A stretch of 7,045 nt of DNA, from the IMG/VR virus record IMGVR_UViG_2547132277_000003; one strand, 5' to 3'. The position numbers and the translations under genes are program-made. Numbering within the stretch: the stretch's first letter is position 1; every line of letters starts with the position of its first letter. This document shows positions 1-7,045 of this stretch, one piece after another. The notes beneath the pieces are model-generated. The model did not search any database. It saw only the letters and a list, made by a program, of their open reading frames with translations, and was not told the origin of the DNA. Origin of the DNA: a virus (Duplodnaviria; Heunggongvirae; Uroviricota; Caudoviricetes).

Positions 1-852
1 TTCCTGCGTGAAGCGCTGTTCCGGTGTCTGCCTGAACTGGCGAAGTTCTCGCCTGTCAGCAACGTCAGCCATCCACTGCTCCAGTAGCTGGTTAACATGG
101 GCGAAGCTGTCGAACCGGCGGTACCGGATGAAGAAGTTTTCCTTGAGGTATTTCACCATCCGTTCAACCTTACCTTTGGTTCTGGCCCTTCGTGGACGGC
201 AGGCCCGTGGCAGGAAGCCATAGTGATCGGCCAGCAGCAGGAACCCGGAGTTGAACACCACCTTCCCGTTGTTATTTTTCAGCACTGCGGCTTTCTGGTT
301 ATCGACCAGCACGGTTTTCACGCTACCGCCGAAGTAGCGAAAGGCGCGGACCAGTGACTCATAGGTATGTTCAGCATCCTGCTTTGGTGCCGCGAAGACA
401 TGGAAGCGACGTGAGAACCCCAGCGTATTAACCGCGAAGTTAACCCTGCATCGTTGCCCGGCAACCTCAGCCTCAACTTCTCCCCAGTCATGCTGTAGCT
501 GGTAACCGGGCTGAGTTTCGAAGCGAACCGTTTTCTTCGATGGCCGCATCTTACGTTTGGGCTGGATGTAGTAGCGCAACATGGAACGGCCACCGGTATA
601 ACCCATCGCTTTGATTTCCGCCAGGATGACCTCGCCGTTCCAGACGTTCTCAGCCAGACGCATATCTATATAGTCCATGAACGGCTTGAGTTTGGCCATT
701 TTGTGGCGTGTTTTTCTGGCCGGAGGTTCCGGGTATTTCAGGTACCGTCTGACGGTCCGTTCAGAGCAACCAACCTGAGTGGCAATATCAACAATATACG
801 CACCTTGCTGGCGCATTTGCTTTATCATGTAAAAATCCTCTCTGCTCAGCAT
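1..852 (-). CDS. istA: IS21-family transposase IstA, N-terminal ~284 aa (C-terminus beyond window)
   Basis: Manual minus-strand translation from ATG (complement of 850-852) gives MLSREDFYMIKQMRQQGAYIVDIATQVGCSERTVRRYLKY..., an N-terminal HTH. Further in are ...GYQLQHDWGEVEAEV... (first Asp of the DDE core) and ...RPRRARTKGKVERMVKYLKENFF..., all typical of IstA. The frame stays open to position 1 (last residues read ...VADRRELRQFRQTPEQRFTQE). It is absent from the ORF track only because no stop lies in the window. Confidence 0.85.
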   Translation of the reverse strand, partial: MLSREDFYMIKQMRQQGAYIVDIATQVGCSERTVRRYLKYPEPPARKTRHKMAKLKPFMDYIDMRLAENVWNGEVILAEIKAMGYTGGRSMLRYYIQPKRKMRPSKKTVRFETQPGYQLQHDWGEVEAEVAGQRCRVNFAVNTLGFSRRFHVFAAPKQDAEHTYESLVRAFRYFGGSVKTVLVDNQKAAVLKNNNGKVVFNSGFLLLADHYGFLPRACRPRRARTKGKVERMVKYLKENFFIRYRRFDSFAHVNQLLEQWMADVADRRELRQFRQTPEQRFTQE

Positions 853-3918: not shown

Positions 3919-3938
3919 AGGTCGGTCATGAGCACTAA
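3759..3938 (+). CDS. hypothetical small protein (59 aa, TTG start), alternative frame to the 3' half of 3580-3918
   Basis: Manual translation in the third frame: (M)[58 protein letters not shown]. Balanced, aromatic- and charge-rich composition. A perfect SD AAGGAG (3745-3750) lies 8 nt before TTG at 3759. Missed by the ORF track, probably because of its short length. Confidence 0.35.
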
Positions 3939-4869
3939 ATTAACCGGCTATGTATGGGATGGTTGCGCAGCGTCAGGCATGAAATTATCCAGCGTGGCAA
4001 TTATGGCCCGCCTGGCTGATTTCAGTAATGACGAAGGTGTGTGCTGGCCATCAATTGAAACCATTGCCCGTCAGATTGGCGCGGGGATGAGTACCGTCAG
4101 AACGGCTATCGCACGGCTGGAAGCAGAAGGCTGGTTAACGCGTAAGGCGCGTCGCCAGGGTAACCGCAATGCGTCGAATGTTTATCAGCTTAACGTTGCG
4201 AAGCTTCAGGCAGCGGCATTTTCTCAACTGTCAGATTCTGACCCGTCAAAATCTGACGCATCAAAATCTGACCCGTCAAAATTTGATGCGTCGAAATCTG
4301 GCAAAAAAGCGGGTTTTCACCCGTCAGAATCTGGCGGGGATCCGTCAGTAAAATCAAAACATGATCCGTCAGATAAAAAAACTTCTCGTCCGGACGCTTC
4401 GCAACCGGACACGCAGACGGCTGAACAGGAGTTTTTAACTCGCCATCCTGATGCGGTTGTATTCAGCCCTAAAAAGCGCCAGTGGGGAACGCAGGATGAT
4501 TTGACCTGCGCACAGTGGCTCTGGAAAAAAATCATCGCCCTGTACGAGCAGGCCGCCGAATGTGACGGCGAGGTGGTTCGTCCCAAAGAACCGAACTGGA
4601 CAGCCTGGGCAAACGAAATTCGCCTGATGTGTGTGCAGGATGGTCGTACTCATAAACAAATCTGCGAGATGTACAGCCGCGTCAGTCGCGATCCGTTCTG
4701 GTGCCGTAACGTGCTCAGCCCGTCGAAGCTGCGGGAAAAATGGGATGAGCTTTCCCTGCGCTTATCGCCGTCCGTCAGCACGTACACCGAAAAACGCGAA
4801 GACCCGTACTTCAAAGCCAGTTACGACAACGTGGACTACAGCCAGATCCCGGCAGGATTCAGGGGGTGA
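3928..4869 (+). CDS. phage replication initiation protein, O-like (N-terminal winged-HTH domain, iteron-encoded linker, C-terminal domain)
   Basis: 313 aa, SD GAGGT (3918-3922) 5 nt before the ATG. N-terminus VWDGCAASGMKLSSVAIMARLADFSNDEGVCWPSIETIARQIGAGMSTVRTAIARLEAEGWL resembles the HTH of prophage replication initiators. The central low-complexity linker (SDSDPSKSDASKSDPSKFDASKS...) is encoded by tandem DNA repeats, as in lambda O where the origin lies inside the gene. Confidence 0.8.
   Translation: MSTKLTGYVWDGCAASGMKLSSVAIMARLADFSNDEGVCWPSIETIARQIGAGMSTVRTAIARLEAEGWLTRKARRQGNRNASNVYQLNVAKLQAAAFSQLSDSDPSKSDASKSDPSKFDASKSGKKAGFHPSESGGDPSVKSKHDPSDKKTSRPDASQPDTQTAEQEFLTRHPDAVVFSPKKRQWGTQDDLTCAQWLWKKIIALYEQAAECDGEVVRPKEPNWTAWANEIRLMCVQDGRTHKQICEMYSRVSRDPFWCRNVLSPSKLREKWDELSLRLSPSVSTYTEKREDPYFKASYDNVDYSQIPAGFRG
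4228..4380. repeat. iteron-like tandem repeats (putative phage replication origin) inside the O-like gene
   Basis: Five contiguous 15-bp units at 4228-4302 (cTGTCAGATTCTGAC, CCGTCAAAATCTGAC, GCATCAAAATCTGAC, CCGTCAAAATTTGAT, GCGTCGAAATCTGGC), then further CCGTCAG-initiated copies at 4321, 4342 and 4366. Each unit has internal dyad symmetry (GTCAGA / TCTGAC). A moderately A-rich stretch (4343-4381) follows. Confidence 0.6.
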
Positions 4870-6013: not shown

Positions 6014-6336
6014 CGACGTTAACTCAATGCCAGCAGCAGGTGCTGGATATGCTGATTTCTTATCAGAAAGAACGTGGCTTCCCGCCAACCAATCAGGAGG
6101 TGGCAACCATGCTGGGATACCGTTCGGTGAATGCAGCGGTGGAGCATCTTCGCGCACTGGAGAAAAAAGGCGTCATCACGATAAAGCGTGGCGTGGCCCG
6201 GGGGATAACGCTTCATACCGCGGTGAAGGACGACGACAGCGAGGCGGTCGGGATTATCCGCGCACTGCTTGCCGGTGAGGAAAACGCAAGGCTGCGTGCA
6301 ACCCACTGGTTACATGAGAGGGACCTGAAAGTATGA
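6010..6336 (+). CDS. LexA-like DNA-binding-domain-only protein (winged HTH, no S24 peptidase domain)
   Basis: 108 aa. LTQCQQQVLDMLISYQKERGFPPTNQEVATMLGYRSVNAAVEHLRALEKKGVITIKRGVARGITL parallels the LexA N-terminal domain (LTARQQEVFDLI...[36 protein letters not shown]...) but the protein ends about 35 residues later with no Ser/Lys dyad. ATGA overlap with the Dam stop. Confidence 0.75.
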   Translation: MTTLTQCQQQVLDMLISYQKERGFPPTNQEVATMLGYRSVNAAVEHLRALEKKGVITIKRGVARGITLHTAVKDDDSEAVGIIRALLAGEENARLRATHWLHERDLKV

Positions 6337-6614
6337 AGCTGATCCTGCCTTTTCCGCCCAGCGTGAACACGTACTGGCGACACCCCAACAAAGGGGCGTT
6401 TGCTGGTAAGAGCCTGATAAGCGCGGCGGGGCGAAAATTCCAGAGCGCGGCGTGCGCAGCAATAGTTGAGCAGTTACGTCGTCTGCCGAAACCAACGTCG
6501 GCACCTGCTTCAGTGGAGATCGTGTTGTTTCCTCCGGATAGACGGGATGGAAAACCGCCGCCATCGCCTGAACTGGGAAATGAGCCGGGACAGGTGTTTG
6601 CGGCTTGGCAGTAA
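6333..6614 (+). pseudogene. rusA: RusA-family Holliday-junction resolvase, C-terminally disrupted (catalytic Asp region missing)
   Basis: N-terminus MKLILPFPPSVNTYWRHPNKG matches the RusA signature (E. coli RusA LPWPPSNNRYYRHNRG). Similarity continues through ...VEIVLFPPDRR, but the expected RRDLDN...K...D catalytic segment is replaced by DGKPPPSPELGNEPGQVFAAWQ-stop. No alternative frame in 6538-6660 restores it. ATGA overlap with the upstream gene. Confidence 0.55.
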
Positions 6615-6650
6615 CCGGCTCATTTAAACCGTCTGGTCTGTTTCCTCCGG
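6526..6650. repeat. 12-bp exact direct repeat TGTTTCCTCCGG (6526-6537 and 6639-6650) flanking ~101 bp at the rusA breakpoint
   Basis: Seen directly in the sequence. The first copy lies within rusA codons just before homology is lost; the second lies 44 bp upstream of the right-hand transposase start. Confidence 0.6.
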
Positions 6651-6693
6651 CTCTACAAAAATAATGTCCATCATTTTTAATGGACACTATCGT

Positions 6694-7045
6694 ATGAAAC
6701 ACCGGACCTGGATCACTGAAGCTTTACGTCTTCACTTTGAAGAACATTTACCCCGGGTTGTGGCCGGGCGTCGCCTGGGTGTACCAAAATCAACAGTTTG
6801 TAGTATGTTCGTGCGCTTTCGGAGAGCTGGCCTTTCGTGGCCTTTGCCCGCAGGCATGTCGGAGCAGGAACTTGATGCCTGCCTTTACGGACAATTTTCC
6901 ACGATACCAGTCGTACGTCCTGAAAGCACCGTTATATCCGAAGCCCCCGTGGTAAAAAAACGTCCCCGGCGGCCCAACTTCCCTTATGAGTTTAAAATCG
7001 CCTTAGTGGAGCAGTCACTGCAGCCCGGAGCCTGTGTGGCGCAGA
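6694..7045 (+). CDS. IS transposase, N-terminal part with two HTH regions (family uncertain, IS3-family OrfA-like; partial, runs off window end)
   Basis: Manual translation from ATG 6694: MKHRTWITEALRLHFEEHLPRVVAGRRLGVPKSTVCSMFVRFRRAGLSWPLPAGMSEQELDACLYGQFSTIPVVRPESTVISEAPVVKKRPRRPNFPYEFKIALVEQSLQPGACVAQ..., no stop before the window end. The second HTH resembles IS2-type OrfA ([25 protein letters not shown]). It differs from the left-hand IstA, so the two flanking elements are different. Confidence 0.6.
   Translation, partial: MKHRTWITEALRLHFEEHLPRVVAGRRLGVPKSTVCSMFVRFRRAGLSWPLPAGMSEQELDACLYGQFSTIPVVRPESTVISEAPVVKKRPRRPNFPYEFKIALVEQSLQPGACVAQ

Follow-up and report, generated by a model that had tools for sequence, protein, structure and literature searches.

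A rusA gene cut short in a defective thrW prophage of ETEC O6:H16: fusion to an integrase gene, insertion of ISCro1, and a coincidental 12-bp repeat

How does a resolvase gene come to lose its catalytic half, and does a short repeat standing beside the break say anything about how the loss occurred? The question is raised by a stretch of phage-derived DNA of 7,045 nucleotides (the window), toward the right end of which a RusA-like reading frame ceases to resemble RusA part-way along; a 12-mer, TGTTTCCTCCGG, occurs on either side of the place where a transposable element begins. The first-pass annotation supposed that the catalytic region of RusA had been lost, that the resolvase was in consequence inactive, and that the 12-mer might be a target-site duplication, the homology at a deletion junction or the terminal repeats of the right-hand element. 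The loss is real, and so is a recombination junction just after the first 12-mer, at 6539-6540; none of the parts proposed for the repeat can be upheld. One way to understand the locus, to which we give a probability of about 0.92, is as the outcome of two independent and ordinary events, a fusion of rusA to an integrase gene and then an insertion of ISCro1, with the 12-mer pair arising by coincidence. The features concerned are collected in Table 1.

The window is 100% identical to a segment of the chromosome of ETEC O6:H16 strain 2014EL-1346-6 and to 14 related genomes. What it covers is the early region of a prophage, now defective, at thrW (next to proA-thrW) in ETEC O6:H16. Positions beyond it are given in the coordinates of record L001, in which position equals window position + 5701. 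The RefSeq gene order begins with a repressor/cro-like pair, a replication gene, a PerC-like gene, a Dam methylase and a LexA-like regulator; after the regulator come a RusA pseudogene, an IS66-like element and an integrase pseudogene. The left edge of the window (1-852) starts within istA, on the minus strand, of the IS21-like element ISEc62. Neither H10407 nor FDAARGOS_1077 has ISEc62 at the corresponding place in the prophage; the latter carries IS100 in the replication gene instead. A replication-initiator-like gene (3928-4869) contains 4.3 tandem copies of the 15-bp unit TCTGACCCGTCAAAA (4237-4300, 81% matches), which encode a PSKSDASKSD-type repeat; by analogy with the lambda O gene, these are possibly iteron-like origin repeats.

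Table 1. Features at the right end of the window, in window coordinates
Feature	Position	Strand	Basis or remark
rusA 5' fragment, codons 1-69 of 129, ending ...VLFPPD	6333-6540	+	Identical to intact H10407 rusA
Chimeric 93-aa ORF	6333-6614	+	69 aa RusA, then 24 aa out-of-frame integrase, TAA stop
12-mer copy 1, TGTTTCCTCCGG	6526-6537	+	Native rusA coding sequence (LFPP)
Crossover of rusA::integrase fusion	6539-6540		Three-way base-by-base comparison
thrW-type tyrosine integrase remnant, from codon 105 (...VDGMENRRHRLNWEMSRDRCLRLG)	6541-6610	+	Matches E. coli HS integrase
Left copy of 8-bp target-site duplication, GCTTGGCA	6603-6610		Same 8-mer after right end
ISCro1 (IS66-family), left 435 bp	6611-7045	+	Left inverted repeat starts GTAACCGGCTC at 6611
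12-mer copy 2, TGTTTCCTCCGG	6639-6650	+	Native ISCro1 interior, element positions 29-40
ISCro1 tnpA accessory gene, 5' part	6664-7045	+	RefSeq WP_001704819.1
Hairpin, 7-bp stem + 8-nt loop	6665-6686	+	TGTCCAT (6665-6671) / ATGGACA (6680-6686)

What has been lost is best judged against an intact homologue, here the 129-aa RusA of ETEC H10407 (L007 20324-20713). The intact protein reads FPPDNRIRDLDN, and after FPPD it continues NRIRDLDNYNK...EDDSQV; the residues that follow FPPD in the window (RRDGKPPP...) are integrase DNA translated out of frame. Similarity to RusA had at first been followed to ...FPPDRR, at about 6545. It holds up to FPPD, at 6540, but the 'RR' belongs to the out-of-frame integrase and is an accidental likeness. 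RefSeq marks a RusA pseudogene 'missing C-terminus' at 6333-6545. No RusA Pfam domain is detectable in the 93-aa ORF, even at E<=1; under relaxed thresholds its sole Pfam match is a meaningless one at E=0.2. The intact homologue matches PF05866 at 6.1e-15 over profile positions 1-123 of 124, that is, at full length, which bears out the claim that the catalytic region is gone from the window copy.

Alignment to a protein of known structure locates the loss more closely. The intact homologue aligns to E. coli RusA (PDB 1q8r) over residues 3-120 (E 3.8e-18); FPPD stands opposite HMPD (residues 62-65), the last RusA residue of the window being the equivalent of D65, and RDLDN...K...DD stands opposite R69-D70-L-D72-N...K76...D90-D91. 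The window copy is without equivalents of R69, D70, D72, K76 and D90/D91. In the E. coli enzyme, endonuclease activity depends critically on D70, D72, K76 and D90; the cation-binding site consists of D70, D72 and D91, and R69 has an important part in DNA binding (PMC1636454). Keeping 69 of its 129 residues and losing the catalytic ones, the truncated RusA is inactive, and a resolvase cannot be made from it; on this point the initial suspicion is correct.

Could the short ORF instead be native, a naturally short RusA-like protein? Its start codon is intact, and 93 codons are read through to a stop; that stop (TAA, 6612-6614), however, is supplied by the end of ISCro1, and residues 70-93 are out-of-frame integrase DNA. 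About 2,200 records have rusA running past the junction, and the one read fully, that of H10407, encodes 129 aa. With the lack of a RusA Pfam match added to these, the likelihood of a natively short protein is, in our estimate, vanishingly small.

The DNA that replaced the lost half is part of an integrase gene. Base by base, agreement of the window with the rusA parent lasts through 6540, and that with the integrase parent sets in at 6539; H10407 rusA, the intact gene aligned here in order to place the exact junction, diverges after 6540. Perfect microhomology at the crossover amounts to 2 bp, TA only, amid patchy similarity. A 14-bp overlap between rusA and integrase (6535-6548) was entertained and then set aside: read base by base, it is patchy similarity with 2 bp perfect. 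The integrase remnant is identical to the intact E. coli HS integrase (L008 11691-12845) over 6539-6610, and the gene resumes beyond ISCro1, outside the window. The pre-insertion sequence was reconstructed by removal of ISCro1 and one copy of the duplication. The reconstructed frame is open across the insertion site (...DGMENRRHRLNWEMSRDRCLRLGKPVPEYKPKL...), and the reconstituted integrase remnant matches Pfam Phage_integrase (PF00589) at 5.5e-35. The catalytic domain is thus present, with a 46-nt thrW core downstream, yet the integrase is not complete: it lacks codons 1-104, and ISCro1 divides what is left of the gene. RefSeq has a site-specific integrase pseudogene here, 'missing N-terminus'.

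Each side of the junction is common; the combination is rare. Among the complete E. coli genomes, the 292-nt reconstruction finds intact integrases in >2,000, matching them only from query position 33-35 on; window 6010-6610 matches ~2,200 intact-rusA records, only up to 6548. The fusion itself is found in 16 records, as against the ~2,200 with rusA running past the junction; 15 of the 16 carry the IS and one does not.

The right-hand element was taken from the start to be transposable, and so it is: ISCro1, of the IS66 family. Its total length is 2,699 bp, and over these 2,699 positions it shows 3 differences from a full copy in record L002, the transposase of which is assigned to the ISCro1 family by RefSeq. 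The published description of ISCro1 gives 2,699 bp and an 8-bp target-site duplication (PMC12115866). The genes tnpA, tnpB and tnpC are consecutive (RefSeq, L001 12365-14980), and the window holds the 5' part of tnpA only. The left end, GTAACCGGCTCATTTAAACCGT, and the reverse complement of the right end, GTAAGCGACTCGTCAGAACCGT, are imperfect inverted repeats beginning GTAA(G/C)CG; the right end in L001 reads ...GAGTCGCTTAC at 15010, and the right copy of GCTTGGCA follows it directly, at L001 15011-15018, outside the window. Three genes, inverted repeats, 8-bp duplication, length and sequence all place the element in IS66-family ISCro1. Five other copies (on a plasmid, in a porin/tia locus, in a tape-measure gene, in a relaxase gene and at a further chromosomal site) agree with the window at every base from 6611 to 6675 and bear no relation to it further left; four of the five have 8-bp duplications of their own (GCTTATAA, GGCCTTGC, GGTAAGCC and GCTTATCA).

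A left end at 6595-6602, taken from the points at which megablast matches start, proved wrong; the aligned copies put it at 6611. The matches start at 6595-6602 because several targets share GCTT-rich sequence ('gcggcttataa', 'tccggcttatca'). A CGGCTT motif lies across the start of the duplication in three of six ISCro1 sites (GCTTGGCA, GCTTATAA, GCTTATCA); window 6595-6610 shares it with the DNA to the left of the element in L002 and in L005. To judge by these sequences, the shared motif suggests a target preference of ISCro1.

Inside the element, TnpA matches Pfam HTH_Tnp_1 at 8.6e-15, and two in-frame ATGs, 30 nt apart, are available to it: 6664, used by RefSeq, and 6694, an alternative. 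The hairpin that had been described as lying just upstream of the transposase start is real (dG -8.6 kcal/mol, z -2.4), but it covers the RefSeq tnpA ATG at 6664, 30 nt upstream of 6694. The same hairpin sequence is present in other ISCro1 copies; it is a feature of the IS itself.

The order of events can be read from the one fusion record that lacks the IS. The genome of FDAARGOS_1077 is the reconstructed IS-less sequence (100% over 292 nt), with the GCTTGGCA target uninterrupted and in single copy. As it has the fusion without the IS, the fusion preceded the ISCro1 insertion. In the first event, rusA would have been linked by illegitimate recombination, at the end of its codon 69, to the integrase gene of a second thrW phage at codon 105; the catalytic half of RusA would have been removed and the integrase left without its N-terminal 104 codons. 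In the second, ISCro1 would have transposed into the integrase remnant, 70 bp to the right of the junction, duplicating GCTTGGCA. The provenance of every base from 6333 to 7045 is established.

What, then, of the 12-mer? It does occur in the window twice, as first reported, exactly and on the plus strand both times; a search with up to one mismatch across the window returned no third site. The match is exactly 12 bp, because the flanking bases differ on both sides. The base-by-base reading covered the five other ISCro1 copies and one intact rusA: copy 1 is at the equivalent place in the intact rusA of ETEC H10407, and copy 2 is at the same offset in five of the five ISCro1 copies. Present in every ISCro1 examined, copy 2 is therefore ordinary IS interior, neither terminus nor duplication. 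The end of ISCro1 falls between the two copies, with 73 bp separating it from copy 1, outside the element, and 28 bp from copy 2, inside it; a second copy abutting an IS terminus, which it had been suggested to look for, is not what is seen. The pair is a coincidental match of normal rusA with the normal interior of ISCro1; this is called chance because each copy has an independent provenance, and not from statistics alone. The later transposition of ISCro1 would have set the two, by chance, no more than 113 bp apart.

A functional tie between the 12-mer and the rearrangement, whether as target duplication, deletion homology or terminal repeats, has the attraction of proximity. Copy 1 ends just 2 bp before the real junction, and in 2,000 Markov-1 simulations just 5.6% of windows of this size held a 12-mer pair as close (<=150 bp apart). 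Such proximity is somewhat uncommon and statistically only mildly unusual; the same window contains four further 12-mer direct pairs, exact and isolated, and 'unlikely by chance' was an overstatement. Nor does any of the three roles suit the particulars. The true target duplication is the 8-bp GCTTGGCA, which abuts both ends of ISCro1, and the ISCro1 family makes 8-bp, not 12-bp, duplications. As deletion homology, the repeat would call for a partner in the integrase parent, which has no similar 12-mer at the crossover, TA alone being shared; moreover both 12-mer copies persist, the second coming from ISCro1. As for terminal repeats, the ends of ISCro1 are imperfect inverted repeats (GTAACCGG... 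/ ...CGCTTAC) that start GTAA, unlike the 12-mer, which in all five copies belongs instead to the ordinary sequence inside the end of a known IS. Copy 2 moves with the element to unrelated sites; intact rusA already has copy 1; and the IS-less fusion exists with copy 1 only. A role for the 12-mer in the rearrangement is accordingly very improbable, and coincidence is the reading retained here.

The orientation of the pieces bears on how the fusion arose. The remnant of the integrase gene has plus-strand orientation, and the 46-nt thrW 3' core that follows it is reversed (L001 15803-15848); the genuine thrW (L001 332-407) is plus-oriented, and the prophage's own integrase is on the minus strand. 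The inverted position of remnant and core relative to thrW makes an inversion endpoint the more likely origin, and the fusion is probably the endpoint of an inversion in a tandem double lysogen rather than of a simple collinear deletion. The two breakpoints of the inversion would have lain in the first phage's rusA and in the integrase of another phage, lodged at the right attachment site of the first; after it, the reciprocal product would have been deleted. Homologous recombination between near-identical integrases was considered as well and rejected: the two integrases of the locus are just 71% identical over 263 bp.

The reciprocal junction (integrase 5'::rusA 3'), sought with a chimeric query of 440 nt, has no counterpart in a set of 5,426 complete E. 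coli genomes: not one record covers at least 80% of the query. Nor was it found within ~45 kb downstream in 2014EL-1346-6, where a further 35 kb of downstream chromosome holds backbone genes only. Since the reciprocal junction was not found, the inversion step is one that we infer.

An alternative perspective supposes a one-step deletion between two head-to-tail prophages at thrW, with loss of the first prophage's late genes together with the 5' end of the second's integrase. Deletion is the commonest route of prophage decay, and the absence of the reciprocal product fits it; thrW is a tandem integration site, and H10407 has a second integrase-bearing element after its intact prophage. A collinear array, however, would put the second integrase on the minus strand beside a plus-oriented thrW core (compare L001 332-1540), whereas the actual remnant is plus-strand and the 46-nt core reversed; and the one flip that is known, between the ~240-bp inverted repeats described below, excludes the integrase remnant. 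With orientation against it, deletion in one step seems unlikely, and an inversion endpoint remains the preferred origin of the fusion.

Outside the window, on the same chromosome, is a ~240-bp inverted repeat (L001 15734-15974 / L010 32268-32506, 93.8% identical) that comprises the integrase 3' end, the 46-nt thrW core and 126 bp. The ~9.7-kb segment between the repeats carries avs2 (AVAST type 2), two pinE genes, and tail-fibre, GIY-YIG and AraC-like genes; it is oppositely oriented in 2014EL-1346-6 and in FDAARGOS_1077. At L001 21209-24162, two facing pinE genes stand across a tail-fibre invertible segment without the constant tail-fibre part, and the intact H10407 prophage has one pinE; the region has the look of two prophage right ends joined together. 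A fuller scheme can be offered tentatively, with the odds somewhat against it: the rusA::integrase fusion would be the surviving endpoint of a large inversion in a thrW double lysogen, followed by deletion between opposed tail-fibre segments, which would have left the ~9.7-kb Avs2 cassette. Were this scheme true, decayed att sites would flip-flop a cassette of defence genes (Avs2), and the 12-mer would still be coincidental.

Both pseudogenes and the IS were already marked by RefSeq, all the elements are of known kinds, and the region of the rusA truncation is a case of ordinary prophage decay. The value of the analysis is mainly one of annotation: the exact junction (6539-6540), the end of ISCro1 (6611), the duplication (6603-6610) and the order of events. 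It also illustrates that a striking short repeat beside a breakpoint can be a chance juxtaposition, and it may serve as a small worked example of thrW tandem lysogeny decaying via illegitimate recombination, IS insertion and recombination between att-region repeats.

Three known systems provide the comparison. Beside E. coli RusA (PDB 1q8r, 2h8c), the intact homologue of this lineage conserves the R-D-L-D-N...K...DD motif, whereas the window copy ends at the equivalent of D65. Beside ISCro1 as described, the element agrees in length, in the order tnpA-tnpB-tnpC, in its GTAA-starting imperfect inverted repeats and in the 8-bp duplication; the tnpC protein accession of the window copy is not that of the common allele, and otherwise nothing sets it apart. 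Beside defective lambdoid/CPS-53-like prophages of E. coli, the likeness is of a general kind: the early region is kept and the late genes are lost, rusA is truncated, microhomology at the junction is only 2 bp long, and IS elements have built up (ISEc62 on the left, ISCro1 on the right). The difference lies in the fusion partner, the integrase of a second thrW phage in inverted orientation, which points to inversion plus deletion rather than a single deletion.
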